Assembly: GCA_048594725.1 (NCBI GenBank)
Contig: JBMDXA010000091.1
Location: 19,970 to 83,969, forward strand
Reading direction: 5' to 3'
DNA length: 64,000 bases
Source of the DNA: Candidatus Kapaibacteriota bacterium
GTDB lineage: Bacteria; Bacteroidota; Ignavibacteria; OLB7
Positions 1 to 62,518 of this stretch are shown here, one piece after another (positions within the stretch are counted from its first letter, which is position 1; every line of letters starts with the position of its first letter). The notes beneath the pieces were generated by a model. That model saw only the letters and a program-made list of their open reading frames with translations, had not been told where the DNA came from and searched no databases. The position numbers and the translations under genes are program-made.

Positions 1-2927
1 GTGCCGCTGGAGTTATATTTCGCCAGCGCCATGTCGCGCCCTCCGGCGCTCGTCGCATACACCGTCCCGTACTGCACGGTGCCGGTGATGGTTCCCGCCA
101 CATAGACGTTCCCCGATCCATCGGTTCTCACGCCCCGCCCGTCGTCGCCATCGCTGCCGCCGTACGACGCGCTCCACTGCCCCGCCCCGCTGCTGTTGTA
201 CTTGCCGACGAATCCATCCTCCCCGCCGGCGCTTGCCAGCGCGGTGGTGGCGATCGTCGCGCTTCCCTTGAACTTTCCGGCCACATAGACGTTGCCGCTT
301 CCATCCACGGCTATGGCATTGGCCTCGTCGGCCTCGCTTCCTCCTCCCTTCTGTGCCCACTGCACCGCGCCGCTGGCGGCCGCATACTTGGCCGCGAAGA
401 TATCGGTGCTTCCGCTGGAGCTGAGAGAGGTGGAGCCGAAGGTGGCGGTATTGCTGAACAGACCGGCCACCACGGCGTTGCCGCTGGCATCCGCATCCAC
501 GCCGCGCGCCTGATCGCGTCCGGTGCCCCCTCCCTTCTGCGCCCACAGGAGCGTGCCGTCGGCATCGTAGCGTGCCACGAACAGATCCTGATCTCCCGCG
601 CTGGTCAGCGACGTGGAGCCGAAGGAGACCGTGGAGAAGAACCCGCCGGCCACCAGTACATTGTTGTTGGCATCGACGGCGACCGCGAGAGCCGAGTCGT
701 TGCCGGAGCCGGCGATCTGGCGTGCCCAGAGGAGCGAACCTCCGGGGGAGAATTTCGCCAGGAACGCATCGGTGGCGCCGGTCGCAGTAAGGGTGGTGCT
801 GCCGAACCGGATGGAGTCGTTGAATGTCCCTGCCACCAGCAGATTGCCTCGTGTATCGAGCGCGAGCGCGCGAGCCGCGTCTTCGCGGGGACCGCCGGCG
901 GCGCGTGCCCACTGCCAGCCCAGCGGGAGCGTGACGATGGAGAACGCCGCATCGCTGATGTCGGCGGTGGCGGAGTTCTCGCGGTCGCTGATGCGGATGC
1001 GCCCGCCGGAGGTGGCGATTGCCGGCACCGTCCAGTTGAGCGTTCCGCTTGCCGGGGTCACGTTCGTGGCTACGGTGCTCCAGGAGGCGCCGTCATCGGC
1101 GGAGAAGTCGATGCGGAGGCTGGAGATGGAACCGGAGAAGCTCCAGGTGATGGGGGTGACCGCTCCGGCCCTGAATGCGGTTGCGGTGTTCGGTCCCAGC
1201 AGGGTGAGCGTTCCGGAGGTGGATGCCACTACCTCGAACGGCCGTACCTGGGAATTGTTCGCCGGGAAGGCATCCGAGGCAAGCGTTATCGAGACGGTAG
1301 CGGAGTAGCGCGCGATCGAATCGATCGAGGTCTGCAGGAAGTTGACCGTGGTATACGCCCCTGCGGCCAGCGATGCGATGGTCTGGGAGTTCGTATACAC
1401 CTGGTTGCCGGAGCTGTCCCTGATAGTACAGGTTACCGACAGGGCCGACTGGGAACTGGTCCCGATATTCTTGAAGGTTGCCGATGGAGTGAACGCCGAC
1501 GATGTTGCCAGCCGCCCGCCCGGGGTGGGCACGTTGATCGTCGAGACCGCCACATCGTTGGCGGCGGAATTTTCCAGGAGGCTGATGCAGGATGCCATCT
1601 CCGCCTTGCTGCGAACCAGATCCGCAACGCGCGGGTGCATATACAGCTGGGTGCCGAACTGCGTCAGGTGGCAGTAGCTCATGATCGTTCCCACGCGCGG
1701 CCGCGTGGAGGAGAAGCAGGTCCCCTCGGCGGTGTAGCAGGAATCGATCGCCGGCTCCCACAGGCAGCTATGGGTGTGCGGGGAGCCGAAGTTGTGTCCC
1801 GTCTCGTGTGCGGTCACATCGGTATCCCACACGTAGGCCGTGGAGGGATAGGTGACGTTGTTGTTCATGCCGAGGACCGCGTAGCCGGTCGAGGAGGAAC
1901 AGAGCACGTTCACATAGGCGATGCCGCCGCCGATGGAGCTGGTGGACATCAGCTGCGCCACGGTGCGGCTGACGCCGTTCATATTGGCGTTCCAGTAGTT
2001 CCGGAACTGGCTCAGAAGAATGCTGCTGGTGGAGCCGGGGTAGGGATCGCCGCCGGTCCAGACACGGAGGTAGGGAACCTGAAGTGCCACATTGACGTCG
2101 CGCTGGTAGATCGCCGAAGCGGCCCCCATCACGGTCAGGGCGTAGTGCATCGCACGGGAGAGATTGCGGTTGTGCGCGGCATAGAAGGCGGAATCCCCTT
2201 CAAGAGCGATCTGCGCCACCAGCATATCGTTCCCCTGGACCCTGCGGGAACTCTTGCTGGAGCGTTTCGCTTCCTTGAAGACCTGATCCACCGCCGGCTG
2301 ATACTCCGGCAGATCCTCGGCGCCGCATCCCCAGTGTCCGGCGCCCCCGAGCATGCCGTTGCGCATAAGCGCATCGAACTCGTCATAGATCGCCATCGTC
2401 GCGCTCTGCCCGTCTTGAATCGACAGAGGAGCGATGGTATAGCGGCGGATGCCTTCGTTGCCGGAGGGGATCTCGATATAGCCGGTGCAGTAATCGCGGA
2501 AGAGCGCCAGGTAGACGAAGGAGCCGGGGATCTCCTTGACCGAGCCCGTGTAGAACAGGGCGCGCGGCAGATCCACGACGAGGTCTCCCTTGGCGGTTCC
2601 CGCAACAACGCGTGCGCCGGGGCTGAGGACGTCGAATCGTTTAAGGGCGAGGGTCCCCTGCTGCCGATTGTTCAATTGAACACGATCGACAAGAATCGTG
2701 GGGTGATTCGCGAGCGAAACCTGGTCGAATACGGCCGGGTTGATCGAAAAGAACGTTGCCGATGCCGGGATGGGCTTGTTGAACGATGGACGCCGTTCAG
2801 TGCGAAAAAGTTCGCCGAATGAAGCATCCCGGCTGATCGTTGCGATGTCCCTGGTAGTCTGCGAGCGCAGCACCCCTTGAGGTAAGGCAAGGGCAATTAG
2901 GGACAGTACGAGCAGTACATGTCTCAT
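1..2927 (-). CDS. Secreted metzincin-type zinc metalloprotease with SBBP-like beta-propeller repeats (N-terminal ~975 aa; C-terminus lies beyond the window start); paralog of 3482..7858
   Basis: Hand translation of the minus strand from ATG at 2927..2925 gives MRHVLLVLSLIALALPQGVLRSQ (signal peptide) and then a continuous frame to position 1. It contains HETGHNFGSPHTH (HExxHxxGxxH) plus a Met-turn (IMSYC), followed by repeated ...SAGGxDxF[LV]AKY... beta-propeller-like motifs. It aligns along its length with the 3482..7858 protein. It is absent from the ORF track because no stop codon falls inside the window. Track ORFs 13..912(-), 613..1308(+) and 1635..2822(+) are wrong-frame or antisense to it. 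Confidence 0.75.
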   Translation of the reverse strand, partial: MRHVLLVLSLIALALPQGVLRSQTTRDIATISRDASFGELFRTERRPSFNKPIPASATFFSINPAVFDQVSLANHPTILVDRVQLNNRQQGTLALKRFDVLSPGARVVAGTAKGDLVVDLPRALFYTGSVKEIPGSFVYLALFRDYCTGYIEIPSGNEGIRRYTIAPLSIQDGQSATMAIYDEFDALMRNGMLGGAGHWGCGAEDLPEYQPAVDQVFKEAKRSSKSSRRVQGNDMLVAQIALEGDSAFYAAHNRNLSRAMHYALTVMGAASAIYQRDVNVALQVPYLRVWTGGDPYPGSTSSILLSQFRNYWNANMNGVSRTVAQLMSTSSIGGGIAYVNVLCSSSTGYAVLGMNNNVTYPSTAYVWDTDVTAHETGHNFGSPHTHSCLWEPAIDSCYTAEGTCFSSTRPRVGTIMSYCHLTQFGTQLYMHPRVADLVRSKAEMASCISLLENSAANDVAVSTINVPTPGGRLATSSAFTPSATFKNIGTSSQSALSVTCTIRDSSGNQVYTNSQTIASLAAGAYTTVNFLQTSIDSIARYSATVSITLASDAFPANNSQVRPFEVVASTSGTLTLLGPNTATAFRAGAVTPITWSFSGSISSLRIDFSADDGASWSTVATNVTPASGTLNWTVPAIATSGGRIRISDRENSATADISDAAFSIVTLPLGWQWARAAGGPREDAARALALDTRGNLLVAGTFNDSIRFGSTTLTATGATDAFLAKFSPGGSLLWARQIAGSGNDSALAVAVDANNNVLVAGGFFSTVSFGSTSLTSAGDQDLFVARYDADGTLLWAQKGGGTGRDQARGVDADASGNAVVAGLFSNTATFGSTSLSSSGSTDIFAAKYAAASGAVQWAQKGGGSEADEANAIAVDGSGNVYVAGKFKGSATIATTALASAGGEDGFVGKYNSSGAGQWSASYGGSDGDDGRGVRTDGSGNVYVAGTITGTVQYGTVYATSAGGRDMALAKYNSSG

Positions 2928-3481
2928 AAATTGGGCTGGGATTTTCGGCTGCATTGCACAGCCAAGTGGTATGGGTTGGACCGTTTACTCAGGTGCTGAA
3001 ACAGGCGCCTGAATCGTTTCTCAAAAGACCGGACGAAACGGAAGTTTGAAGCTCGAGGAAACGAACCCCGGACGGGTGGAACTGCATATGCAAGCCTCTG
3101 GACAAGGTGCCGTATGCGTGCTTCAAGGATAAGGAAGCGATGTTCCCGCGGCAGCCGGCTTCTGGAAAACCGGCTGCTGTTCGGGGCAGGGCAAATATAT
3201 GCTCATGGTTATTGCGACGCATGAGTTTTTTTGCGTGCGATCCAGAAAATAACGTCGTGATTAAATGCGACCGGACGAGGGTGTTGTAAACAACTTTCAG
3301 GCCATACCGGGCTGAAGTATTTATGGCAATAGGTGAGATCATCGGCCTGAATATCCTCCGTTTCTTATGGTTCGCACATGCAGGGAGGCCTGGGGTGGGG
3401 GCCATGCAATGGCAGAGGTGATAGGGATGGCAGGCAGGGTATCCGGCCATCCCTATTTCTATCATGTTCCGGCCACGATGC

Positions 3482-6400
3482 TTATTGCTTCACGACCTTC
3501 TGATTCCACACGGTTTTTCCCGCATGAATTTCCAGCAGGTAAATGCCGGACGGCAAGCTGGTGATATCCATTTCTCTCCGATATGTGCCGCGCGCATGAA
3601 TCTCGCCGGCACGCAATACTTCGCGTCCCGCCATATCGCGTACGATAAGCCGTAGCTCGCCCGGTTCCGGCAGCTCCAGTTCCACCATGAAAGTGCCCAT
3701 GGTTGGGTTCGGCTGGAGTACGGGGACCGATTCGGCGATGCGGGATGATCCGGTGACACCGGAAGCTATTCGGACGGGAAGTGGATCGGATAAAACAGAG
3801 CAGCCAGTGCCGCTGAACACCATAACGGTATAAGCGCCATCAAGGTTAGCAGTGAAGCTGCGCTCGGTTGCTCCGGCTATCTCCTCTCCGTTGCGGAACC
3901 ACTGGTAGGATTCCCCTTCCACCGAGGAGCTGAGAATCAGGGTGGCCGGCTGGCGGATCACCTCCGGCCTTGCCGGTGCGGCATAGACCTGGGCGGTGTT
4001 GGAGGGGAACGATTCACGCTGGTTGACCAGCGCACGCACGTGGTAGAAATAGTCGGTGCAGAGGGTTACCGAGCCGTCGGTGTATTCCAGCACCTCCTTC
4101 TCGACCGTGGCGATACGGGTCACCTCTTCGCCGTTCATCCCCCGGTACAGCGCATAGCCGGTGATCTCCTGGCTTGAGGAGGGCTCCCAGATAAGATGTG
4201 CTGCCCCGTGCAGTGCCGATCCGCGCAGATTGACCGCTGGCGCCACCGTGGCCGAGGAGGAGCTTATCACCGCAAAGGTGCCGCTCTGCGCCTCGCCGTA
4301 GATCGATGGATTATCCGCATCGGTAACACGGATCAGACCCTGCACGCAGGGGGTATCCGGCGTCCAGTTATACACCCCGTTGTTGGGGGCGGTGCCGGCC
4401 AGGGTGGTCCAGCTGGTGCCGTTGTCGCCCGAATATTCTATCCGGACGTTGTTGGCTGTGGTGCCGGTCCAGGTGATGTTCCTGGGCGTTCCGGCCATCA
4501 GCAGCTCCCCTTCCGACGGGGTTACCGTCTTGAACATGCCGATACGTGCCACCATGCCGTCGTTCATGCCTGCGCCGCTCAGCCTGTCCTCCCCGTAGAT
4601 GCTCGGCTGGTCCGAGGGGGGAGCAAAGCCGTAGCGTCCCACCACAAAGCCGTTCTCGCCGCTGGCGGCAATGGCAATGCCTCCCGCCTCCTCGTCTCGT
4701 GCTCCGCCCCCGCGCCGGGCCCACTGCACCAGCCCGTCGGTGCCATACTTGGCGAAGAAGATATCGCTGCCGCCACTGCTGCTCAGCTCCAGCTGGGCGA
4801 TGGTGAACTGGTTGCGGAACGTTCCGGCCACATAGCAGTTGCCGAACGCGTCGATGGCGAGCTCGGTGGCCGCATCATCGCCGCTGCCGCCGGCGGTGCG
4901 TGCCCACTGCACGGTGCCCACCGCATTGTAGCGGGCGATGAACATATCGCGCCCGCCGCTGCTGCTGGCGAAGAAGTTGCCGAAGTTCACGGTGCCAGCG
5001 AGCGATCCGCTCATCGTGGCGTTCCCGGTCCTGTCCGCCACCACCGCCGAGGCCTCATCGTTCTCGGGACCCCCTGCAACCGCGCCCCACGCCGTGGTGC
5101 CGTTCGCGTTGAACTTCGCCAGGAACGCATCGCTTCCGCCTGCGCTCGTGATGGTTCCCGATCCCACGCTCATCGAGCTACGGAACCGGCCCGCCACATA
5201 GCTGCCGCCGTAGCTATCTGTCGCGATGCCGTTGCCGGCATCATCCTCGGCGCCTCCAAGACGGGCACTCCACGCGAGGGCTCCTGCCGGGGCGTAGCGG
5301 ACCACGAAGATGTCGGTGCCCCCGGCGGAGACCAGGCTGCTGGTGCCGAACGAGGCGTTTCCGGTGAACATGCCGGTGGCAAGCACATTGCCGTTGGTAT
5401 CCACGGCCACGCCATAGGCCATATCGGCGGAGCCGCCGCCGCCACGCTGCCCCCAGAGCGGGTTCCCGTTCGGATCATACTTCGCGATAAAGGCATCGGT
5501 GCCGCCGGCGCTGGTAAGCGCTGTGGAGCCGATGGTAATGCTGCTGGAGAATCCGCCGGCCAGATGAACGTTCCCCACGCCATCCAGTGCTATTGCCGTT
5601 GCGCTGTCGGGGCCGATGCCGCCGATCTGGCGCGCCCACTGGAGCGTTCCGCCGGCGTTGTACTTCGCCAGATAGACATCGGTGCTTCCCCGGCTGGACA
5701 TCCGCGTGGCGCCAAGGCGTATCGAATCGGAGAAGGTGCCGGTGATATAGACGTTATCGTCGCGGTCGATCGCCACTCCGCGCGCCTCATCCTCCATCCT
5801 TCCCCCTATCGATCGTGCCCACTGCCACTCCAGCGGCAGCGTAACGACGGTAAAGGCCTGATCGCTCTGATCGGCCACCGAGGCGTTATCGCGATCGCTG
5901 ATCCTGATCCGCCCGCGCGTGGTTGCCACCGCCGGTACCGTCCAGGTATAGATCTTCCCTCCGGTGTTCGCCGTCAGCTCGGTCTTCACCGTCTGCCAGG
6001 TCATCCCGTCGTCGGCGGAGAAATCGATCCGCAGAGCGGTGATGGTGCCGGTGTAGTTCCAGGCGATCGTCGCGGTGCTGCCGGAACGGAGCACCGTGAA
6101 ATCGTTCGGGGCAAGGAGTGTGATGGACGCGGCCGAGCTTGCCACGGTCTCGAACGGCCGGGCCAGCGTGTTGTTCTGCGGATTCGCATCGGTGAGGGGC
6201 GTTATCGTAACCGTGGCGTTGCAGCGGGCCACGGCCTGGATGGAGGTGGATGCGAAGGTCACCGTAACCGATTCGCCAGGCTGCAGAACCGGAATCGTCC
6301 GGGTATTGTCGTAGAGCTTGGCGCCGGCGCTGTCGCGGATCACGAAGGTGACCGGGACCAGAAGCTGTACCACGGTGCCGGTGTTCCTGAAGCTTGCCGT

Positions 6401-7858
6401 GGGGGTGAACTGCGTGTTGGTAACCACCTTGCCGCCGGGGACCGGAACGGTGATGCCGATGGCCGCAACATCGTGGGTCACCGGGTTCTCCAGCGGCACC
6501 ACGCAGGGAAACGCCTCCGCCTTGCTTCTGATGAGCGCGGCCACGCGGGGGTGGAAATACAGCTGGGTGCCGAACTGCGTAAGATGGCAGTAGCTCATGA
6601 TGCTTCCCACGCGGGGCTTGGTGGAGCTGAAGCAATTGCCGCTCTCGGCCGCGTAGCAGGAGTCGATCGCCGGTGCCCAGGCGCAGCTATGGGTATGTGC
6701 CGAGCCGAAGTTGTGCCCCAGTTCGTGCGAGACCACATCGACATCCCATGCATAGGATGTGCTCGGAAAGACTATGTTATTACCCAGGCCGATGGCCGCA
6801 TAGCCCGATGCCGGGGCGCACAGCGTGTTGACATAGGCGATGCCGCCGCCGATCGACTTGGTGGAGAAGAGATGGGCTACCGCTCTGTTGACCGTGCCCA
6901 TGTTGTTCGCCCAGTAGGTGCGCATCTGCCCGAGAAGCGTGCTGCTGGTGGTGCCGGGATAGGGATCGGAGCCGGTCCAGACGCGCAGGTACGACACCTG
7001 GAGGGCGACGTTGAGATCGCGCTGGTAGATGGCCGATACCGCCCCGGTCACCGTCAGTGCGTACGTGACCGAGCGTGCAAGGCTGCGTCCGTGCGCCGCG
7101 TAATACTCCGCATCGCAATCGATCGCCATCTGCGCCACCAGCGGTTTGTTGCCCTGGAGGCTTTTCTCCGCCTCTGTCAGACGGCCGTATTCCTTGAACG
7201 AGCGCATAATCCCCTGCTCGTACTCCGGCAGCTCCTCGGCGCCGCACTCCCAGTGCCAGGGGCTCTGCCCGGTCTTCCTCTCGGCCGCCTGGAGCGCCTC
7301 GCGCTCGTTGTATGCCACCATCACCGACGGCGTCCCCTCGTTGATGCTCAGGGGCGCGAACGTGATGCGGCGGGAGGTGCCGTCATCGGAGACGGGGCGA
7401 TCGATATAGCCGGAGCAGTAGTCGCGGAAGACTGCCAGGTAGACGAAGGAGCCCGGAAGTTCGGCCACGGTACCGCTCAGGAAGATGCTCTGGGGGAGTT
7501 CGGCCGGACGATCGCCCGTCTGCGTGCCGGCTACTACTGCGCCGCCCGGGGCCAGTACATTGAAGCGGCGGAGCTGGAACGTCCCGGTGGTGCCGCCGGG
7601 GAGCCGCACCCCTTCCAGGGTGACGGAGGTACCCGGCAGCTCTGCAAGGCGCTCGAACGCGGCGGGATCGATTCGGAAGAATGCTGATGACGGAGGGATT
7701 TCATCCCCTCTCTGTGCGGGCGCTCCCGGATGTGCGGTGAACAGTCCGTTGAAAGACGTTGCACCATCGGACGACCGTGGATCGTTCTGCTGCGCATGGG
7801 CGGAATGCAACAGCATGAATGCACTCAGTACTATACCAAGTAGCCAGGTATATCTCAT
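3482..7858 (-). CDS. T9SS-sorted secreted multidomain metzincin zinc metalloprotease (signal peptide, propeptide-like region, HExxHxxGxxH catalytic domain, Ig/Fn3-like modules, ~8 SBBP-type beta-propeller repeats, C-terminal T9SS sorting domain)
   Basis: 1458-aa ORF starting MRYTWLLGIVLSAFMLLHSAHAQ (signal peptide). It carries HELGHNFGSAHTH and a Met-turn (SIMSYC). Repeats of the form GGxxxDxAxGIAxDxxGNxYVAG / SAGGSDAFLAKFNANG recur about 8 times. The C-terminus (...NPTMGTFMVELELPEPGELRLIVRDMAGREVL...GIYLLEIHAGKTVWNQKVVKQ) is a type-A T9SS sorting domain. Confidence 0.9.
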   Translation of the reverse strand: MRYTWLLGIVLSAFMLLHSAHAQQNDPRSSDGATSFNGLFTAHPGAPAQRGDEIPPSSAFFRIDPAAFERLAELPGTSVTLEGVRLPGGTTGTFQLRRFNVLAPGGAVVAGTQTGDRPAELPQSIFLSGTVAELPGSFVYLAVFRDYCSGYIDRPVSDDGTSRRITFAPLSINEGTPSVMVAYNEREALQAAERKTGQSPWHWECGAEELPEYEQGIMRSFKEYGRLTEAEKSLQGNKPLVAQMAIDCDAEYYAAHGRSLARSVTYALTVTGAVSAIYQRDLNVALQVSYLRVWTGSDPYPGTTSSTLLGQMRTYWANNMGTVNRAVAHLFSTKSIGGGIAYVNTLCAPASGYAAIGLGNNIVFPSTSYAWDVDVVSHELGHNFGSAHTHSCAWAPAIDSCYAAESGNCFSSTKPRVGSIMSYCHLTQFGTQLYFHPRVAALIRSKAEAFPCVVPLENPVTHDVAAIGITVPVPGGKVVTNTQFTPTASFRNTGTVVQLLVPVTFVIRDSAGAKLYDNTRTIPVLQPGESVTVTFASTSIQAVARCNATVTITPLTDANPQNNTLARPFETVASSAASITLLAPNDFTVLRSGSTATIAWNYTGTITALRIDFSADDGMTWQTVKTELTANTGGKIYTWTVPAVATTRGRIRISDRDNASVADQSDQAFTVVTLPLEWQWARSIGGRMEDEARGVAIDRDDNVYITGTFSDSIRLGATRMSSRGSTDVYLAKYNAGGTLQWARQIGGIGPDSATAIALDGVGNVHLAGGFSSSITIGSTALTSAGGTDAFIAKYDPNGNPLWGQRGGGGSADMAYGVAVDTNGNVLATGMFTGNASFGTSSLVSAGGTDIFVVRYAPAGALAWSARLGGAEDDAGNGIATDSYGGSYVAGRFRSSMSVGSGTITSAGGSDAFLAKFNANGTTAWGAVAGGPENDEASAVVADRTGNATMSGSLAGTVNFGNFFASSSGGRDMFIARYNAVGTVQWARTAGGSGDDAATELAIDAFGNCYVAGTFRNQFTIAQLELSSSGGSDIFFAKYGTDGLVQWARRGGGARDEEAGGIAIAASGENGFVVGRYGFAPPSDQPSIYGEDRLSGAGMNDGMVARIGMFKTVTPSEGELLMAGTPRNITWTGTTANNVRIEYSGDNGTSWTTLAGTAPNNGVYNWTPDTPCVQGLIRVTDADNPSIYGEAQSGTFAVISSSSATVAPAVNLRGSALHGAAHLIWEPSSSQEITGYALYRGMNGEEVTRIATVEKEVLEYTDGSVTLCTDYFYHVRALVNQRESFPSNTAQVYAAPARPEVIRQPATLILSSSVEGESYQWFRNGEEIAGATERSFTANLDGAYTVMVFSGTGCSVLSDPLPVRIASGVTGSSRIAESVPVLQPNPTMGTFMVELELPEPGELRLIVRDMAGREVLRAGEIHARGTYRREMDITSLPSGIYLLEIHAGKTVWNQKVVKQ

Positions 7859-9711: not shown

Positions 9712-10470
9712 ATGAAAGCATTTCTTATGCTGGCACTCGGTCTGGTCCTGGTCTCATGCCAGGAACAGGCGGGGGGCAGCGGCTCCACCACCCTGAAGTC
9801 CAACGATGACAGTGTCAGTTACAGCATCGGCCTCAGCATCGGCAAGAGCAGTCTGCAGGATTCGCTCAACCTCAACCCCGATCTGCTCGCCGCCGGTATC
9901 CGCGATGCGGTTGCCAGCAAGCCGATGCTCACCGATTCGCAGACCCAGAACGTGATGAACGGGTTCAACCAGCGAATGATGGAAAAGCAGCAGGCCAAGA
10001 TGATGCAGATGCAGGATAGCATGCGCAAGGCCGGCGAAGGAAACAAGTCGGCCGGCGAGAAGTTCCTGGCCGAGAACAAGGCAAAGCCGGGCGTGGTAAC
10101 CCTCCCGAGCGGCCTCCAGTACCAGGTCATCACCGAGGGCACCGGCCCCATGCCGAAGTCCACCGACGAGGTGAAGGTGCACTATCGCGGCACCACCATC
10201 GACGGAACCGTCTTCGACAGCTCCATCGATCGCGGCGAGCCGGTGACGTTCGGCGTAACCGGCGTCATCCCCGGCTGGAGCGAGGCGCTTCAGCTGATGA
10301 AGGTGGGCTCCAAGTGGAAGCTCTTCATCCCGGCCGAGCTCGCATACGGCGCCAATCCTCCCGACCAGAAGATCGGCCCGAACTCGGTGCTGCTGTTCGA
10401 TGTGGAGTTGCTGGAGATCGTGAAGAAGGGGGCCAACAACCTTTCCACGCCGAACCCCGGCAGCAAGTAA
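9712..10470 (+). CDS. FKBP-type peptidyl-prolyl cis-trans isomerase (FkpA/Mip-like), lipoprotein
   Basis: MKAFLMLALGLVLVSC (lipoprotein signal + Cys), an N-terminal dimerisation helix region, and a C-terminal FKBP domain (...VHYRGTTIDGTVFDSS...GVIPGWSEALQLMKVGSKWKLFIPAELAYG...). Confidence 0.85.
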   Translation: MKAFLMLALGLVLVSCQEQAGGSGSTTLKSNDDSVSYSIGLSIGKSSLQDSLNLNPDLLAAGIRDAVASKPMLTDSQTQNVMNGFNQRMMEKQQAKMMQMQDSMRKAGEGNKSAGEKFLAENKAKPGVVTLPSGLQYQVITEGTGPMPKSTDEVKVHYRGTTIDGTVFDSSIDRGEPVTFGVTGVIPGWSEALQLMKVGSKWKLFIPAELAYGANPPDQKIGPNSVLLFDVELLEIVKKGANNLSTPNPGSK

Positions 10471-10814: not shown

Positions 10815-11504
10815 TTGATGAAAACGCTGATTATTTCGGCGCTCTGCCTCGGTTTTGTGACGGTGGCCGCGAGCGCGCAGCAGGCCAAGCTCACAAATCG
10901 CATCGATAGCGCCAGCTACAGCATCGGCTGGGATATCGGCAACAGCCTGAAGGCCCAGGGAGTCTCGCTCACCCCGTCGCTGCTGGCCCAGGGGATCTCG
11001 GATGCGCTCGGCGCACAGAAGTCGGCGCTGACCGATGAGCAGATGCAGGGGATCATCATGGAGCTTCGCCAGGAGATGGCGGCGAAGGCGCAGGAGAAGA
11101 TGCAGCAGATGGCGCTGGAGAACCAGAACGCCGGTGCCGCATTCCTGGCCGATAACAAGAAGAAGAAGGGGGTTACCACCCTGCCGAGCGGTTTGCAGTA
11201 CGAGGTTATCAAGCAGGGCTCCGGCGCCATGCCCAAGGCCACCGATAACGTCACCGTGCATTATACCGGCAAGCTGATCGATGGCACCGTCTTCGATAGC
11301 TCCGTGCAGCGCGGCGAGCCGGCCGAGTTCAAGGTCAATGGCGTCATCCGTGGCTGGACCGAGGCACTTCAGCTGATGAAGGCCGGTTCGCAGTGGAGAC
11401 TCTTCATCCCCGCCGAGCTTGCCTATGGCACGCAGGGCGCCGGCCAGACCATCGGGCCGAACTCGGTGCTGGTGTTCGATGTCGAGCTTCTGAAGGTGAA
11501 CTGA
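10815..11504 (+). CDS. FKBP-type peptidyl-prolyl cis-trans isomerase (FkpA-like), secreted; tandem paralog of 9712..10470
   Basis: MMKTLIISALCLGFVTVAASAQQ signal peptide. The FKBP domain (VHYTGKLIDGTVFDSS...GVIRGWTEALQLMKAGSQWRLFIPAELAYG) aligns colinearly with the upstream paralog. Confidence 0.85.
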   Translation: MMKTLIISALCLGFVTVAASAQQAKLTNRIDSASYSIGWDIGNSLKAQGVSLTPSLLAQGISDALGAQKSALTDEQMQGIIMELRQEMAAKAQEKMQQMALENQNAGAAFLADNKKKKGVTTLPSGLQYEVIKQGSGAMPKATDNVTVHYTGKLIDGTVFDSSVQRGEPAEFKVNGVIRGWTEALQLMKAGSQWRLFIPAELAYGTQGAGQTIGPNSVLVFDVELLKVN

Positions 11505-15200: not shown

Positions 15201-15460
15201 TCCGCTATCTGGCCGAGCGGGAGGTAAGCGTGGAGGGGGGGAAGGAGCGCGCATTTCTCTTTGCCTTCAGGGGATATCCGGGAGCTGCATGGAGCGTGGG
15301 GATAAGCGGGTCGCAGCCGCTGGACCGATCGCGGCTGAACTCCACTCCGGCGATGGTGGGCTCCGAGTACGCGGCTCTGGATGCCGATACCATCGACGGG
15401 CACTTCGACCTGTTGCTGCGCCAGTACGACACCCCGGTGCGGGAGGAGGCGATGCCGTAG
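12272..15460 (+). CDS. TraB/GumN-family domain protein fused to a long HEAT/ARM-like helical-repeat C-terminal region (about 1060 aa), secreted
   Basis: The real start is M(FPM)RRTTFLSLSVVLLIHAGADLSAQ (signal peptide) inside track ORF 11393..15460. An alternative ATG lies at 12281. TraB/GumN hallmarks are LLWEISGNG...YLYGTMHV and a later HLGG motif (AVGAGHLGGEKGL). The C-terminal ~600 aa are helical repeats (HEAT-like: ...LHALLRKSSLNDWEAYPVRGAIISKLADMRD...). Confidence 0.7.
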   Translation: MFPMRRTTFLSLSVVLLIHAGADLSAQRRQDERTLLWEISGNGLAAPSYLYGTMHVYDKRAFDFSDSVLLKLQGCTAFASEVLMDRSLRDVILYYRHQDSIAEAEARMDEEISTEVSQPDMEFVGPFPPSSPADTIGISVAAPDEEPYGGPVRIVESTGSGERPRRSGRISSDLFNEQGERKPGDQPVVLDAYLSRLAKKEGKQMLALEEVGEQLEALSYHDPIALWKFYFSRPKYLRKMTEKQLREMMLRHYRNGDVEKLHTMMLESFPPVMYEKFIVNRNRAMAGRAETYMRAQPTFIAVGAGHLGGEKGLIRLFRERGFTVRPVRATRTGLARSYREPQRRLEWFRFSSETGAYAADLPSEPIDINDFSGFSSSVESVKRSRLYLWVDVLTGITYRIGYYDYPFEPELLTETGNQLGSALNELAYESGKPKGNPKEVRADGLRGVQADAMLADSTIRRSRFYLRGSRIYALSAQTVPELMDSEDAERFFSSFRIEPIRPVEFRPFVSPDGGFRVLLPQEPDTQLDTSRVAFDAYQLGVIGRDSNSGERYEVQCIQYSEVDSFADTAFLFDPLLEFLRYNASDSILRNDSMQWLGFPARDIEVINTRTGYTRRGRALLQGRRLYYLHTGASRERIGSENTEEFFRSFTLLADSASGDLFSDKSGIILSELESENEERRSRATYALSRLDLAPEHIPALHALLRKSSLNDWEAYPVRGAIISKLADMRDTSMVEIIRDIYPEFQDNPNLQSEAFSALAEIRTTGALDLLAELIVADSSALNSGQLDFGTLYPLHYDLPASRQLYPKIFAALNREKYRMELYELTAAMFREGLLSSADILPYASAIQGQLLDLVQAPPDSEDSYEHAQLLHGVIECAGFLPVSAELQSTLSTLQNDENIYIACAATIAAVRQGAELPNGVLARLTASPEISMMLYRGLERSGREALFPAPLRAQRKFAENVFIEWFMEDNDAPPDSVRYLAEREVSVEGGKERAFLFAFRGYPGAAWSVGISGSQPLDRSRLNSTPAMVGSEYAALDADTIDGHFDLLLRQYDTPVREEAMP

Positions 15461-16290
15461 GGGGGGCGATGCGGTAATGCGGTAGTGGTGAGCCCGGCCG
15501 GGTGCTGCTGGCAACGGTGTTGCTCCATCGGCCGGCCCATATCACGGTAGTAGCGTATGCGCGGCATAGTCCGGACCCCTCCCATCAGCCCCCCGGATTG
15601 CATGTGGTCCCGCTCGGCGATGCGAATGACGATGTGGGGGCATGCGTATCCGCATGTGTACCTTCCGGGGTGGCGGCCCGGCTGTAGCGATGGCGGATGG
15701 GGAGAAGGATTGCCCCTCTACATCCGGAGCCTCAGGATCTACGGAGGTAATTTTCTTTGGGATACCAGCGATTTACTATTCCCTTCGCCCCCTTTTTGTT
15801 TTAAATTATTCCCAGCTCCAACCTCGCCCTAGGAGCAAAGGGTCACTGCGAATCATCTCCATACAGCGTATTCACTGTAATCCTTACTCCCCCCCGGAGC
15901 TTTTGCGACGTGTCGGCGAATTGCAGCAACCGTCTTGCCGGGTAGAGCCATCGCCTCGAGCAGATTTACGACAGCAGGATAACCATCCGGGCGGAAGCCG
16001 CCTGATGCTGAGATAGCGCCATCACGTATGCGCAGTTTTGTATGATGCCCTCCTGGGAGGGGAGAAAGCCCCTACAGGAGTCTCCATCGGCATGATACTC
16101 CATTGATGGGAGTGCCGGGAGACTGCTGGCATCATCGCCCCACGATCTTTTGAAAACCATCACACAATGCGGAGATCACCATGAGTAAACGAATCGAATC
16201 CTTCCGTTCATTCCCCGCTCCTGATCTATTCCCCAGGAATATATCGGTGCCGGTAAAAGCGTATCACCAGCGCAGAGGAGAGAGCGGGCT

Positions 16291-17190
16291 ATGAAAAACG
16301 GACGATGGCCGGAATATGTACCACCGCAGAATCCTGGAAAATCGAGCAGATATCTGCGTTGGAGCAAGGAAGAGGATACCACTCTGAAGCTGCATTACTC
16401 CAAGCGCGGGTCCCGTTATACCGCCGAGCTTCTCGGGCGGTCGGTTACCAGCGTGCAGCACCGCGCGCTGAAACTGGGCATTCCCGGCAATGGCGTGCGG
16501 GTCTGGACGGAGATGGAGGTGCGATACCTTCGCAGCCGCTACCCGAAAATGTCGGTGGCGCAGATCTGCCGTACCCTCCACCGGAGCGAGCAGAGCGTGC
16601 GGGGGCAGATCAACCGTCTGGGGCTTGGCTCTCCTGCACCTACACCATGGACCGATGGGGAGATAGCCTATCTGCGAGCCCACTATGGACGGGTGAAGGT
16701 GGCTGAGCTGGCCGACGAACTGGGGCGCTCCCCGGATGCGGTGGAGATCAAGGCGGGGAAGCTGGGACTGAGCCGGAAGAATGTGAAGCTCACCGAGGAG
16801 GATAAAGTCTACGTCCTCGAAAATCTGGGACGCATCCCCTATACGAAAATGGCGGCTAAGCTCGGGGTGGATGTCAAGAAACTGATGCGCCTGGCGGCCA
16901 AACATGGGTTTCATGCCCGTGGTACCTGCCGTCCCTGGACCGATACCGAGGATGAATTCCTCCGGCGCCATTATGGCGATATGGCCCGCAAGAGCATCGC
17001 CGAGCAGCTTGGCCGCACTATCGGCGCGGTGGGGGTGCGTGCCGGGATGCTGGGGCTGACCAAGGGGCGCGGTGCCGAACCGGCTCCCCTGCCGGCTCCG
17101 CCGGTTCCGGCCAGGAAGCCGGCAACCGGGCGTATCAGAAAGATGCAGCCGGCCCAGGTCTATGCCTTGCGAAGCGCCGACGGGCACTGA
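16291..17190 (+). CDS. Protein composed of five tandem ~45-aa Myb/SANT-like helix-turn-helix repeats (W-[ST]-x2-E-[DE]-x2-L-x3-Y ... A-x2-LGR[ST]-x3-V-x2-R-x3-LGL); putative multivalent DNA-binding protein
   Basis: The five repeats are RWSKEEDTTLKLHY...AELLGRSVTSVQHRALKLGI, VWTEMEVRYLRSRY...CRTLHRSEQSVRGQINRLGL, PWTDGEIAYLRAHY...ADELGRSPDAVEIKAGKLGL, KLTEEDKVYVLENL...AAKLGVDVKKLMRLAAKHGF and PWTDTEDEFLRRHY...AEQLGRTIGAVGVRAGMLGL. A Pro/Ala/Arg-rich basic tail follows. The antisense track ORF 16264..17187(-) is Arg/His/Pro-rich junk. Confidence 0.75.
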   Translation: MKNGRWPEYVPPQNPGKSSRYLRWSKEEDTTLKLHYSKRGSRYTAELLGRSVTSVQHRALKLGIPGNGVRVWTEMEVRYLRSRYPKMSVAQICRTLHRSEQSVRGQINRLGLGSPAPTPWTDGEIAYLRAHYGRVKVAELADELGRSPDAVEIKAGKLGLSRKNVKLTEEDKVYVLENLGRIPYTKMAAKLGVDVKKLMRLAAKHGFHARGTCRPWTDTEDEFLRRHYGDMARKSIAEQLGRTIGAVGVRAGMLGLTKGRGAEPAPLPAPPVPARKPATGRIRKMQPAQVYALRSADGH

Positions 17191-17519: not shown

Positions 17520-18434
17520 ATGAGTTACCGATTTGTTGCCGGTGAACCGGTCGCCATAGGGGTGAAGCGGATCGCCGCTGAACAGCTCGATCGCGCGATC
17601 GAAGCTCTCTCCCCCCCGTTTCAGGACCACGGCGTTGCCGTGCACGATGCGCGCAAGAGCATGAAAAAGCTCCGTGCCATCCTCCGCCTTGTGGGGGATG
17701 AGATCGGCAGGGAGGAGTTTGCCGATCATAACCGCGCCTTCCGCGATGCCGCCCGCCGCCTCTCCGAAATCCGGGATGCCGCCGTTCTGCCGGAAACGCT
17801 CCGGAAACTGCGCGAGGAGAAGGGGAAGGGAAAACTGGATGCCGCGTTCGACAGGGCCATGAGCCTGCTGGAGCCCTCCGCGCTGGAGAGCGGCGATCAG
17901 GACCGGAAGCGGCAGCAGACCGAAGGGGCGATGAAGGAAGTTGCCGGCAACCTGCTCCGGATACGCCTGCGAGTGGAGGACTGGTCGATAGAGCGCAACG
18001 ATTTTCGTGCTCTTCGTGGCGGTATCCGCAAGGTCTATAAACGGGGACGAAAGGGATTTGCCGAGGCCCTGGACGAACCTACCGCCGCGAACCTGCATGA
18101 GTGGCGGAAACAGGTGAAGTATCTCTGGTACCAGGTGCGGCTGCTCAGGGGGATCTGGCCCCCCCTGCTGAAATCGCTGGCCGAGGAGCTGCGAGAGCTT
18201 GCCGAGGAGCTGGGAGAGGATCATGATCTGGCGATGCTTCGCGATGCCCTTGCCGGCCTGATGGCCGATGATACCGCAGAGCTGGAGATGATGGTGAAGG
18301 TCATAGAAAAGCGGCGCGCGAAACTTCAGGAGCGGGCGATGATGCACGGTTCCCGGATCTTCGCGGAACGCCCGAAGGCATTTGCCGGGCGGCTGGAAGG
18401 GTACTGGAGTGCGTGGCGCAATGGTAGGAAATGA
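17520..18434 (+). CDS. CHAD-domain protein (conserved histidine alpha-helical domain)
   Basis: ...AVHDARKSMKKLRAILRLVGDE... and a later ...HEWRKQVKYLWYQVRLL... are typical paired CHAD motifs. The protein is all-helical and 304 aa. Confidence 0.8.
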   Translation: MSYRFVAGEPVAIGVKRIAAEQLDRAIEALSPPFQDHGVAVHDARKSMKKLRAILRLVGDEIGREEFADHNRAFRDAARRLSEIRDAAVLPETLRKLREEKGKGKLDAAFDRAMSLLEPSALESGDQDRKRQQTEGAMKEVAGNLLRIRLRVEDWSIERNDFRALRGGIRKVYKRGRKGFAEALDEPTAANLHEWRKQVKYLWYQVRLLRGIWPPLLKSLAEELRELAEELGEDHDLAMLRDALAGLMADDTAELEMMVKVIEKRRAKLQERAMMHGSRIFAERPKAFAGRLEGYWSAWRNGRK

Positions 18435-45298: not shown

Positions 45299-45439
45299 AA
45301 CAGTATGGCTGCGGGAGGGCAGCCATGTATGCATGAAATGCATATCGCCACCTCATCTTCCCTGGAAAAACAAAAAACCCTCCGGGAGTAGTGGAGGGCA
45401 GCAGGGCACGGCCATACGGCGTGCTGTTCATGCGTGTCC

Positions 45440-45559
45440 CCCATCTTCCCTGGCTCTCTGTCCAGGCAGGATTTAGCACCTGGGCGTCTCGTGAGCTGCG
45501 CTCGCGAAACCGGTTGCTACGACGTCATCGGGCCTGATCCCTCGGTCGTTCTTGATGAG
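45440..45559 (-). promoter_or_regulatory. SAM-I (S-box) riboswitch aptamer in the 5' leader of the metB-family/metX/hom operon
   Basis: The minus-strand RNA reads ...CUCAUCAAGAAcgaccGAGGGAucaGGCCCgAUGAcgucguaGCAACCgguuucgcgagcgcagcucacgagacgcccaGGUGCUAAAUCCugccuggacagagagccagggaAGAUGGGGG.... It contains the S-box signature elements GAGGGA, GGCCCGAUGA, GCAACC and GGUGCUAAAUCC, plus a P1 closing helix (CUCAUC/GAUGGG). Confidence 0.8.
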
Positions 45560-45786
45560 TTGACATGAACATACAACGGTAGCGCGGCCGGATGCAAGAA
45601 GTTTTTTGTATACCCGGAACCTGCGCCGGCCGGTACCAGGGGGGTATTCCGCTGGGAACTGCGGGGGACCACTACGCGGGGAATGCCTTGGTCCGCCGGC
45701 GGCACCGCATTAACTTCACCACCCATTCCCTCCTCCTAATCTCCGATTGCTTCTCATGTTGTTTCCTGGAATGGAAGGATTCCGCC

Positions 45787-52255: not shown

Positions 52256-52624
52256 TCACTCCAGCCCGCGCGCTTCCAGATCGTCCTCATCGAACCCGAT
52301 CATATGCCCGAGTTCATGAACGAGGGTGATGCGGATCTGCCCGGCCAGTTCCTCGGGCTCGGGAAAGTCCTCTATCAGCGGACCCCGGAACAGGTAGATT
52401 CTATCCGGCAGGAGAACCGGATTCTCCGAGGGGGCACGCAATCCCACGGGCGTGCCATCGTAATAGCCGTAGGGGGTCTCCTCCACCGGAATTCCTCCCA
52501 TGCGCTCCCGCATCTCCCGGTCGGCCCAGTCATCGATAATGATGGCGCACTCGGCGAGCACCTCCTGCAATTCCTCTGGAAGCTCGTCGATGACATCCTG
52601 CACGATCGATTCAAATTCGGCCAT
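52256..52624 (-). CDS. Minimal zinc metallopeptidase-family protein (Zincin_1/DUF-type, HExxH)
   Basis: 122 aa starting MAEFESIVQDVIDELPEELQEVLAECAIIIDDWADREMRERMG... with ...ITLVHELGHMIGFDEDDLEARGLE. Confidence 0.75.
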   Translation of the reverse strand: MAEFESIVQDVIDELPEELQEVLAECAIIIDDWADREMRERMGGIPVEETPYGYYDGTPVGLRAPSENPVLLPDRIYLFRGPLIEDFPEPEELAGQIRITLVHELGHMIGFDEDDLEARGLE

Positions 52625-52625
52625 G

Positions 52626-52800
52626 GAATTTTCGATTTTCGATTTTGGATTTTCGATTGGGGGAAGGGGGAGGAATTTTCGATTTTCGATTTTGGATTTT
52701 CGATTGAGGGAAGGGGGAGGGATTTTCGATTTTGGATTTTGGATTTTCGATTGGGGGAACGGGGGAGGAATTTTCGATTTTCGATTAAGGGATCGGTGAG
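52626..52800 (+). repeat. About 3.5 tandem copies of an AT-rich ~47-bp unit (GGAATTTTCGATTTTCGATTTTGGATTTTCGATTGGGGGAAGGGGGAGG), starting 2 nt from the start codon of the minus-strand metallopeptidase gene
   Basis: Read directly. The unit boundaries are about 52626-52672, 52673-52720, 52720-52767 and a partial copy to about 52800. Its AT-rich core alternates with G-runs, which is conspicuous in a GC-rich genome. Confidence 0.85.
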
Positions 52801-52839
52801 GCGTGTGGGGGGAGAGTGCCGGCCTCGGACTCCCAACTC

Positions 52840-55603: not shown

Positions 55604-55745
55604 GGGATCACCTCGTTGTTCGCATTCATTGACGGAAGAACTTCATCGCGCATACGAGCCTGGACGATGAGCCCGCTGCTACAGGGGCTCGATACAAATC
55701 CAGGGCCGGAAGTTCTTGGAGCAACGAGTCCGCAGGAGGATTAAT

Positions 55746-55840
55746 GGATTTTCGATTTGCGATTTTAGATTTTCGATTGGTGATTCGGAAAGGGGGAGGG
55801 ATTTTCGATTAGCGATGGGAGAAGATTTTTGATTGACGAG
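55746..55840 (+). repeat. Second locus of the AT-rich TTTTCGATTTTGGATTTTCGATT repeat family (forward orientation)
   Basis: The sequence is ggattttcgatttgcgattttagattttcgattggtgattcggaaagggggagggattttcgattagcgatgggagaagatttttgattg. It lies about 145 nt upstream of the start of the lipoprotein gene at 55603. Confidence 0.8.
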
Positions 55841-56112: not shown

Positions 56113-56149
56113 CCAATCGAAAATCCAAAATCCAAAATCGAAAATTCCC
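56113..56149 (-). repeat. Third copy of the same repeat family in inverted orientation; it forms an inverted pair with 55746..55840, flanking about 270 bp
   Basis: The plus strand reads caatcgaaaatccaaaatccaaaatcgaaaattccc, the reverse complement of GGGAATTTTCGATTTTGGATTTTGGATTTTCGATTG. Confidence 0.8.
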
Positions 56150-56318
56150 AGACCGAGCGAGGGCCCAGCAGCCCCGTAGACAGATCCTGCCCTGCGGGAG
56201 TGTTGAGCCCTCTCGATATCATCGCATCATTGTACGCTGTGCCGGTGGCACGGGATCAGGGAGTGAGGGCGGGAAGCCCGGGCATCCAGAGAATAAGGCA
56301 TCGCCGGCGGATACCGTT

Positions 56319-62446: not shown

Positions 62447-62518
62447 TTGAGGCGGTAGGATTCGAACCTACGGTACGCGGCTCCAAAGGCCGCTGCCTTA
62501 CCGCTTGGCTACGCCTCA
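62447..62518 (-). tRNA. tRNA-Gln (anticodon TTG)
   Basis: The minus-strand sequence TGAGGCG-TA-GCC-AAGCGGTAAG-GCA-GCGGC-CTTTGGA-GCCGC-GTACC-GTAGG-TTCGAAT-CCTAC-CGCCTCA-A folds as a cloverleaf. It has a 7-bp acceptor stem, a GTTCGAATC T-loop and the anticodon loop C-T-TTG-G-A. It is colinear with E. coli tRNA-Gln(UUG) and is followed by CC. Confidence 0.85.

Follow-up and report, generated by a model that had tools for sequence, protein, structure and literature searches.

Two described proteins serve as references for the gene studied here. GcrA of Caulobacter crescentus binds DNA through one helix-turn-helix (HTH) domain, which as a monomer covers ~7 bp in the major groove, and acts together with sigma-70 (PMC5887438). 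According to the T5 record, the phage protein D5 (T5.118, 255 amino acids [aa]) binds DNA, is needed for both replication and late transcription, and takes part in shut-off. Furthermore, a 2026 preprint (PMC13405049) reports D5 as the trigger of a type IX retron and includes an AlphaFold3 model in which it is predicted to engage the multicopy single-stranded DNA (msdDNA) via HTH. Here, we analyzed a 299-aa protein encoded at positions 16291-17190 (+ strand) of a 64,000-nucleotide (nt) stretch from a Candidatus Kapaibacteriota bacterium (assembly GCA_048594725.1, contig JBMDXA010000091.1, positions 19,970 to 83,969), hereafter the window. The protein consists of five tandem HTH units and is a new, unannotated chromosomal member of the known, barely studied tandem GcrA/Myb-like HTH arrays. 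We regard it, with somewhat more confidence than doubt, as a sequence-specific, stand-alone multi-HTH regulator reading a long asymmetric site.

Repeat architecture and predicted fold

The open reading frame (ORF), stop codon included, is genuine: its position and translation, as given by an earlier sequence-only reading of this DNA, were confirmed, and homologues and a match to PHROG 323 stand behind it. Among five orthologues, 77-84% of the first and second codon positions were invariant versus 17% of the third ones (near-neutral), indicating purifying selection, and the start MKxGRWPEY was common to the orthologues in the family alignment. The protein has a computed isoelectric point (pI) of 10.3 and a net charge of +27. 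No second copy of the gene was found in the window, and the antisense ORF at 16264-17187 was rejected as the usual, unsupported shadow of a GC-rich gene.

The five units, of 47-49 aa each, lie in ungapped register, and a repeat hidden Markov model (HMM) placed them at aa 23-70, 71-118, 119-166, 166-213, and 215-262. This HMM was partly built from these same repeats, thus its E-values are circular and not independent evidence; the independent test was the pairwise local alignment of the repeats against 500 shuffles. Repeats 1, 2, 3, and 5 (R1, R2, R3, and R5) were mutually related, with z values of 6-22 and observed scores reached by 0/500 shuffles. The remaining repeat, R4, is degenerate: its pairwise z ranged from −0.2 to 3.7, only the R3-R4 pair being marginal, and it carries Leu for Trp, lacks LGR, and has HGF for LGL. 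The sequence-only reading had counted five copies of ~45 aa; four clear repeats of ~48 aa stand, and the remaining copy is the degenerate R4. The module motif proposed there fits R5 fully and R3 nearly, being otherwise a consensus for the remaining repeats, and the short linkers (IPGNGVRV, GSPAPTP, SRKNVK, and HARGTCRP) and the basic Pro/Ala/Arg tail after the units are as it described them.

Along the gene (all coordinates on the + strand), the N-terminal 22 aa (16291-16356) carry an [HR]WP[EQ] motif, conserved in the family alignment, and are predicted to be disordered, with a predicted local distance difference test (pLDDT) value of ~50. Repeat 1 (aa 23-70, 16357-16500) comprises helices at aa 26-39, 41-48, and 52-62, the third being SVTSVQHRALKLG; across the family, each of its residues S54, V55, Q56, R58, and A59 shows either full invariance or a conservation of at least 90%. 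Repeat 2 (aa 71-118, 16501-16644; helix 3 SEQSVRGQINRLG) has R98 and S102 invariant, with a conservation of at least 90% for V103 and R104. Repeat 3 (aa 119-166, 16645-16788), whose helix 3, SPDAVEIKAGKLGL, provided the family signature for the locus search, has V151, K154, and A155 invariant. Repeat 4 (aa 167-213, 16789-16929), although degenerate, is still predicted to form three helices and is positionally conserved in homologues. Repeat 5 (aa 215-262, 16933-17076), with R242, T243, R250, and G255 invariant, is the nearest to the consensus; like repeats 1, 2, and 3, it was recovered by the shuffle test, the repeat HMM, and the structure model. The Pro/Ala/Arg-rich C-terminal tail (17077-17187; net charge +4) is not conserved in the alignment and is predicted to be disordered, and the paralogues with six repeats have their sixth repeat in its place. 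On the N-terminal side, the [HR]-W-P-[EQ] motif precedes repeat 1 and is itself preceded by (V/I)-I-(K/R)-Q-(F/Y) in most homologues. This disordered motif could be an interaction peptide.

The AlphaFold2 model, computed from a 28-sequence alignment, contained 15 helices forming five three-helix bundles, consecutive units being joined by 10-13 residues between helix 3 and the following helix 1. The pLDDT value was mostly 85-97 within the repeats and below 50 for aa 260-297, corresponding to the disordered tail. Because the predicted template modeling (TM) score was 0.39, the model suggests a flexible chain with no fixed inter-repeat geometry.

Then, we compared the protein with domain models and known structures. 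In Pfam, generic HTH models passed on summed score, namely Sigma70_r4_2 (43.5 bits, over three stretches corresponding to three repeats) and HTH_23. NCBIfam gave nothing meaningful, with sigma models at 12-18 bits versus cut-offs of 126-184; of the sigma-factor regions, only region-4-type HTH was matched, and region 2 was not found with it. The PDB sequences were searched with a profile of 56 repeats. The best full-length single-domain match was the DNA-binding domain of GcrA (profile positions 2-46 aligned to GcrA 3-49, 28.9 bits, E = 6e-6), and c-Myb R2/R3 were weaker (profile positions 2-36 only, 15-17 bits per repeat, chain E ~1e-6). The same search also matched 2lvs and archaeal Lrp/AsnC regulators, and its top two rows were designed helical-repeat proteins, covering helices 2-3 alone. 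In Foldseek, the PDB entries ranking best were DNA binders with several Myb or paired HTH units: SNAPc-PSE (7xur), Reb1-Ter (5eyb), the Mos1/Tc3 transposases, and the DUX4 double homeodomain. All of these matches were weak (E-values of 1.5e-3 and above, with TM ~0.2), as the chain is flexible and has no fixed shape.

On the basis of the GcrA and c-Myb profile matches, the Foldseek matches, and the five predicted three-helix units, the Myb/SANT-like HTH label given by the sequence-only reading is right at the fold level, and the nearest sequence relative of the repeat is the GcrA DNA-binding domain. We also looked for a known repeat that does not bind DNA: peptidoglycan-binding, sporulation, and other such repeats were discarded, since Pfam, NCBIfam, and the PDB gave HTH-type matches only. 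No PADLOC defence model matched the protein at E ≤ 0.01.

Recognition helices and the proposed DNA site

Each repeat was compared with the repeats of ten homologues, which are 43-55% identical overall. The identity between same-numbered repeats was 0.62, 0.53, 0.61, 0.37, and 0.48 (R1 to R5), and the off-diagonal values were 0.15-0.41. Since same-numbered repeats match best, the array is old and fixed, with a helix 3 proper to each module. Indeed, the conserved helix-3 residues are module specific: Q56/R58 in R1, S102/R104 in R2, V151/E152/K154 in R3, and R250 in R5.

Among 998 repeats of 183 proteins (the best listed HMMER matches pooled with the homologues found by word index), the conserved scaffold was W2, T3, E6, L10, Y14, A23, L26, R28, T29, V33, R36, A37, L40, G41, and L42. 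The most variable helix-3 positions were 30, 31, 34, 35, 38, and 39 (3.5-3.9 bits). In the HMM register, these six positions correspond to R33, N34, I37, G38, H41, and R42 of GcrA, all of which contact bases in the GcrA-DNA crystal structure (PMC5887438). The GcrA backbone contacts W3, W15, T32, and K39 (PMC5887438) map instead to the conserved W2, Y14, T29, and R36 of the repeat. DNA binding, which the sequence-only reading had also proposed, is thus the best-supported activity, considering together the structure model, the PDB and Foldseek matches, and the variable helix-3 positions.

A regulator of this kind would, like the lone domain of GcrA, insert helix 3 of every module into the major groove. 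Trp2, Tyr14, Arg28-Thr29, and Arg36 would keep the fold together and make the contacts with the DNA backbone, with the six variable helix-3 positions reading the bases. Based on the spacing of 10-13 residues between helix 3 and the next helix 1, the five modules would span roughly 20-35 bp of DNA. Because the helices 3 differ between modules and are conserved across orthologues, their distinct reading positions would point to one long asymmetric composite site. This goes against the long direct-repeat DNA array that had been suggested as the target, since the five recognition helices differ and each of them is kept across orthologues. The protein has no effector domain, so it might act by occupancy, through repression or DNA shaping, or by some contact with RNA polymerase.

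The SANT domains of eukaryotes have the Myb fold, yet they bind proteins. It is conceivable, although we consider it highly improbable, that the repeats bind a protein (SANT-like or by an anti-sigma-type contact with RNA polymerase) or RNA, and not double-stranded DNA. The protein-binding SANT domains and Sigma70_r4_2, the top Pfam match, would agree with such a function, and, as a phmmer match to designed helical-repeat proteins shows, the sequence pattern is a generic one. GcrA itself works with sigma-70 (PMC5887438); however, its sigma-binding element is the C-terminal domain, which is absent here. Furthermore, the conserved positions of the repeat are the GcrA backbone contacts and the variable ones its base contacts, the fusion partners of the relatives are DNA enzymes (SF2 helicases and LAGLIDADG nucleases), and the protein is strongly basic.

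The window also contains AT-rich arrays of the heptamer (GATTTTC/G)n, in runs of 4-5 units. The one at 52625-52821 consists of 3.4 copies of a 47-nt unit; others occupy 55745-55799 and, in inverted orientation, 56113-56156. The minus-strand gene 52256-52624 has its ATG 1 nt from the end of one array, and the inverted copy is 3.4 kb off. The sequence-only reading had proposed to examine whether the gene co-occurs with the AT-rich repeat family. The same array occurs, often as inverted pairs, in at least 120 metagenome contigs, and it extends far beyond the lineage of the close family, because these contigs span 30-71% GC. A six-frame search of the contigs (641 kb) found no encoded HTH-repeat protein, and the array was not found at any homologue locus. 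The five modules match ~4.5 heptamers numerically, at 7 bp per GcrA domain, a coincidence without support. Reading of the heptamers is disfavoured, because identical DNA units call for similar helices, yet the helices differ. Overall, a link between array and gene is unsupported, though not disproved, the widespread contigs lacking the gene and the homologue loci lacking the array.

Upstream leader, gene neighbourhood, and the rest of the window

Upstream of the gene, a TraB/GumN-HEAT ORF ends at 15460 and is followed by a gap of 830 bp with a GC content of 0.52-0.55 versus 0.60-0.67 in the flanks. The long, lower-GC upstream region described by the sequence-only reading is therefore present; although not unique, it ranks with the three longest gaps of the window when genes are called crudely. 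It is conserved among orthologues: a long gap precedes the gene in every locus with gene calls (554-1,063 nt in seven loci, one of them that of a 6-repeat paralogue). The homologous loci with such a gap are L001, L004, L007, L030, L032, and L033, and the gap sequences are not alignable between subfamilies.

Five close orthologous loci were aligned over this region. The distal 270 nt of the gap were not alignable. Downstream of them lies a near-invariant 33-nt block, CTATTCCCTTC-N6-TTTTTGTTTTAAATTA (15776-15808, +), in which the specified bases are identical at 5/5 loci and 85% of the columns are invariant. A 16-mer of the block is unique in the window, and the block was not found at more distant orthologues or paralogues. 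A simple sigma-70 scan gave no convincing promoter on the + strand. The following non-coding segment (15809-15925, +) has 45% invariant columns without 3-nt periodicity, and block and segment together (15776-15925) could be a structured 5' leader or an operator. RNAalifold predicted a hairpin in the leader with weak covariation (−0.16 kcal/mol), the fold of the whole leader had z = −2.0, and Rfam gave no leader match even at E ≤ 1. Further downstream, AAACCATCAC and GGAGA elements lie in a stretch with 39% invariant columns (16151-16180, +), just before the ATG of a short upstream ORF (uORF). In the rest of the leader, uORF body included, 11-15% of the columns are invariant. A small protein gene in the upstream region was considered and rejected, since stop codons break every frame of either strand in the three closest orthologous loci (window, L001, and L004); the upstream substitutions in the five-locus alignment lack 3-nt periodicity.

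The uORF (16181-16294, +) has 37 codons and its stop overlaps the start of the main gene (ATGA), as the sequence-only reading reported. All five orthologous loci retain the start position, a length of 37-38 codons, and the ATGA end, with the frame open further upstream at two of them. The peptide is not conserved, its substitutions show no codon periodicity, and it has no Pfam match. The evidence for a translated, coupled leader is moderate, because the ATGA overlap follows in part from the Lys/Arg second codon of the gene. The L007 paralogue also has an upstream ORF with the ATGA overlap, of 44 codons. We infer that expression of the gene is probably controlled through this long conserved leader and the translationally coupled uORF, with the 33-nt block as candidate promoter, auto-operator, or both.

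More broadly, the gene order at the locus is Mem_trans - FKBP (two to three copies) - DUF3293 - (TraB/GumN) - [gene] - (MFS) - (CHAD) - Redoxin - DsbD_N - YceI, where the elements in round brackets are optional. The arrangement FKBP-DUF3293-TraB/GumN-[gene]-Redoxin-DsbD_N-YceI is kept across genomes at 75-83% protein identity, and the neighbours differ at more distant orthologues. The gene is monocistronic and chromosomal and has no conserved partner. A prophage or mobile island was also considered and rejected, the synteny being stable with no mobile-element genes beside the gene. The CHAD gene pointed out by the sequence-only reading is indeed present downstream (17520-18434, Pfam 1.7e-32), although its relevance was not borne out: CHAD is absent from the L001 and L030 loci, and in L004 a gene for an MFS transporter lies between it and the repeat gene. 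Its adjacency is thus incidental, and a functional link was discarded.

The word-index search found 38 homologues, the close ones having 5 or 6 repeats. A locus scan on one genome per species, using the R3 helix pattern VE[LI]KA[GA][KR][LI]GL, recovered 20 loci. Of these, 19 were in metagenome-assembled genomes (MAGs) of the FCB group, labelled Kapaibacterium, Chlorobiota, Ignavibacteria, or Bacteroidota, or bearing probably automatic labels, and the 20th was in a prophage replication module of Clostridium botulinum. The close family lies on chromosomes in syntenic positions, almost exclusively in MAGs of Kapaibacterium/Chlorobiota type. It represents an unannotated family of putative regulators, kept within a little-known Bacteroidota/Chlorobiota branch without cultured members. 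Two paralogues were present in each of four MAGs (L010/L013, L011/L019, L022/L025, and L024/L026), which indicates an old duplication. In L010/L013, the sole pair checked, the two copies differ in repeat number (5 versus 6); GCA_964455525.1, one of the four MAGs, carries a 5-repeat orthologue (P0002) and a 6-repeat protein (P0013). The closest named orthologue (83% identity) comes from the MAG with L010/L013, which bears the label "uncultured Alphaproteobacteria". This label is probably wrong, as the orthologous locus L004, of different source, has a Por_Secre_tail gene and the other relatives belong to the FCB group.

Elsewhere in the window, the sole Rfam matches above the gathering threshold were an S-adenosylmethionine (SAM) riboswitch (45438-45561, −; 71.2 bits) and a tRNA (62447-62518, −). 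Repeats spaced by 183 nt (61 codons) lie at 77-1128 and 4668-6044, the latter inside a minus-strand ORF (3482-7858), and ~1 kb is duplicated between 1458-2528 and 6374-7456 (70-80% identical, 4.9 kb apart). The repeats and duplication within 77-7858 suggest a repeat-rich surface protein with a partial paralogue. Two 300-nt segments (10042-10341 and 11121-11420) are 74% identical and 1,079 nt apart, and they may be tandem FKBP-type genes, as at the orthologous loci.

The superfamily and the comparison with known systems

When 1.84 billion cluster representatives were searched exhaustively with HMMER, 5,723 matched at E ≤ 1e-3; 1,262 of these reached E ≤ 1e-10 and 110 reached E ≤ 1e-30. The best 183 relatives have 2-13 repeats each, most commonly 6, and ~150 of them have no non-repeat segment longer than 110 aa. 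In the remainder, an SF2 helicase module (ResIII + Helicase_C) at the N-terminus or a LAGLIDADG_3 domain adjoins 5-13 copies of the repeat, and the helicase fusions gave weak PADLOC matches to PbeA and restriction-enzyme models. The sequence-only reading had judged a chain of five HTH units with nothing else unusual; with 5,723 cluster representatives, T5 D5, and many phage proteins alike, this judgement does not hold. An origin by truncation of an enzyme fusion was rejected, because the orthologues have the same length and identical ends and most relatives are repeat-only. For the window, the outcome is mostly a downgrade, as arrays of this kind are common and neither the CHAD link nor that to the AT-rich arrays stands up. 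Tandem GcrA/Myb-like HTH arrays form instead a large "dark" superfamily of bacteria and phages, of which T5 D5 is the sole studied member that we found. The named members are annotated as "hypothetical protein", with the exception of P0010, a "DNA-binding CsgD family transcriptional regulator" for JGI, and literature searches on bacterial tandem GcrA-like/Myb-like repeat proteins returned nothing specific.

The window protein matched PHROG 323 ("transcriptional regulator, D5-like") at E = 2.5e-50 (172.8 bits), and T5 D5 belongs to the same group (E = 1.2e-71). In hhalign, the family profile was collinear with four consecutive HTH units of D5 (probability 88.8%, E = 2.5e-6, 175 columns, D5 residues 36-237) and a single repeat reached 79.9%; the repeat HMM found weak units along the D5 chain. 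A tblastn search of phage genomes returned 92 records at E ≤ 1e-3, with partial matches of 2-4 repeats, annotated as D5-like, GcrA-family, Lrp/AsnC, or transcriptional regulator and often beside replication genes. T5 itself was not listed among them, the similarity to D5 being remote. Foldseek against predicted viral structures (BFVD) gave 51 matches at E ≤ 1e-3, with phage endonucleases at the top and including a Vibrio phage "D5 protein" and GcrA-like, LAGLIDADG, and HNH proteins; moreover, PHROG 1891 (HNH endonuclease) was matched at 5e-12. The T5 record also holds T5.108 (4546-7332, 928 aa, "replication origin binding"), with SANT/Myb and helicase domains annotated by InterPro, an organization that echoes the helicase-plus-repeat fusions of the metagenomic relatives. 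On T5.108, the repeat HMM found no repeat and Pfam gave Herpes_ori_bp only.

The relationship with D5 raises the question of a nucleoid-associated or architectural protein, which would coat or bend double-stranded DNA with little sequence preference, as reported for D5. The shared PHROG and collinear alignment speak for it, together with the roles in replication, late transcription, and shut-off listed in the T5 record, the pI of 10.3, the net charge of +27, the basic disordered tail, and the lack of both an effector domain and a conserved operon partner. However, the putative base-contact residues are repeat specific and conserved across orthologues down to ~45% identity, which is unexpected for non-specific binding. 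Furthermore, the long constrained leader with its uORF suggests tightly controlled expression and not constitutive abundance, and the D5 similarity is remote, T5 being absent from the tblastn list. We consider this explanation rather unlikely.

Several points nevertheless weigh against a site-specific regulator, the reading that we prefer. D5 is described as a general DNA-binding protein, and biochemistry from 1979 reportedly found gpD5 to be a cooperative double-stranded-DNA-binding protein, a behaviour that fits coating better than site-specific regulation. The Pfam Myb models remained below their cut-offs (PF13921 with 20.1 vs 22.9 and PF00249 with 16.1 vs 24.4); longer relatives reach the threshold on summed scores. 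The variable positions could reflect relaxed constraint and not diversified specificity, and R4, without the scaffold residues, may not bind DNA. Lastly, at the orthologous loci examined, no conserved neighbour gene indicates a regulon.

The fused relatives bear on another explanation, in which a mobile element or defence system supplied a targeting module, such as the arm with which a homing endonuclease or helicase binds DNA, that survives here in domesticated or remnant form and now acts as decoy, immunity factor, or sensor. Relatives with LAGLIDADG_3 or SF2-helicase modules, the weak PADLOC matches of the helicase fusions, the endonucleases among the phage structural matches, and the Clostridium botulinum relative in a prophage replication module are all consistent with it, as is the retron triggered by T5 D5 (preprint PMC13405049). 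Yet the window protein itself has no PADLOC match, no mobile-element genes flank it, and its synteny is stable; in addition, two paralogues are kept in four MAGs and the full-length ORF is under purifying selection. Such an origin is in our opinion very unlikely.

As an extension of the site-specific regulator, each repeat may be a modular, in principle decodable DNA reader, recognizing one short subsite through six hypervariable helix-3 positions set on a constant scaffold, a prokaryotic counterpart of zinc fingers and TALEs. The Kapaibacterium-type protein would then bind a site of ~30 bp, for example its own 33-nt block, and regulate itself. This is a speculative idea, to which we give a small chance. 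If true, the decodable readers would form a superfamily with 2-13 repeats and more than 5,000 clusters, free-standing or joined to helicases and homing nucleases. In any case, the correspondence between the variable positions and the GcrA base contacts offers a testable hypothesis for site choice, of interest for phage regulators, homing-endonuclease targeting, and possibly engineered DNA binders.

Among known systems, T5 D5 resembles the window protein in its strong PHROG 323 match, its small size, and its composition of consecutive HTH units only, four of which are collinear. Unlike the window protein, D5 is a phage early protein encoded in a replication cluster, between the ligase and DnaB-like helicase genes, and its units are irregular, with the PWT start in one only and the LGL end mostly lost. 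The window protein has four canonical repeats, is chromosomal with housekeeping-type neighbours, is conserved within its lineage, and is too distant from D5 for a BLAST link. It should not simply be assumed to share the part that D5 plays in replication, late transcription, and early shut-off.

GcrA of Caulobacter crescentus (5yiu/5yiv/5yiw/5z7i, 7ye1; PF07750) shares with the repeat the pattern WT...L...[WY]...IA..LG..T..AV..K...LGL. It has one DNA-binding domain, a linker of ~64 residues, a C-terminal domain that interacts with sigma-70, and a preference for methylated GANTC, whereas the window protein has five domains, no sigma-interacting domain (second stretch −1.2 bits), and a 37-aa disordered tail. 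PF07750 is not among the Pfam matches of the window protein and is on record for close homologues, and the GcrA base-contact residues R33/N34/H41/R42 are kept in none of the five repeats. The window protein is not a GcrA orthologue.

The HTH arms of phage homing endonucleases and helicases contain the same repeat, next to catalytic domains of which the window protein has neither a copy nor a sign of loss. The archaeal 2lvs, a "CRISPR repeat binding protein" by its PDB title, is small and basic and was matched by the profile at E = 2.3e-5 (Foldseek E 0.48). It is the nearest precedent for the array-reader idea, although the similarity is weak and limited to one unit, and the window gene could not be linked to any repeat array.

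Finally, c-Myb R1-R3, the Myb repeats of SNAPC4, and Reb1 have in common with the window protein the tandem three-helix repeats of ~50 aa and the W-[ST]-x-E-E-D start. They differ in the core residues, since only the first Trp is kept in our repeats (94% of 998), with Tyr as the second (67%) and the third absent, and helix 3 ends in L-G-L. These eukaryotic multi-Myb arrays are a precedent for several repeats that jointly read an extended asymmetric site.

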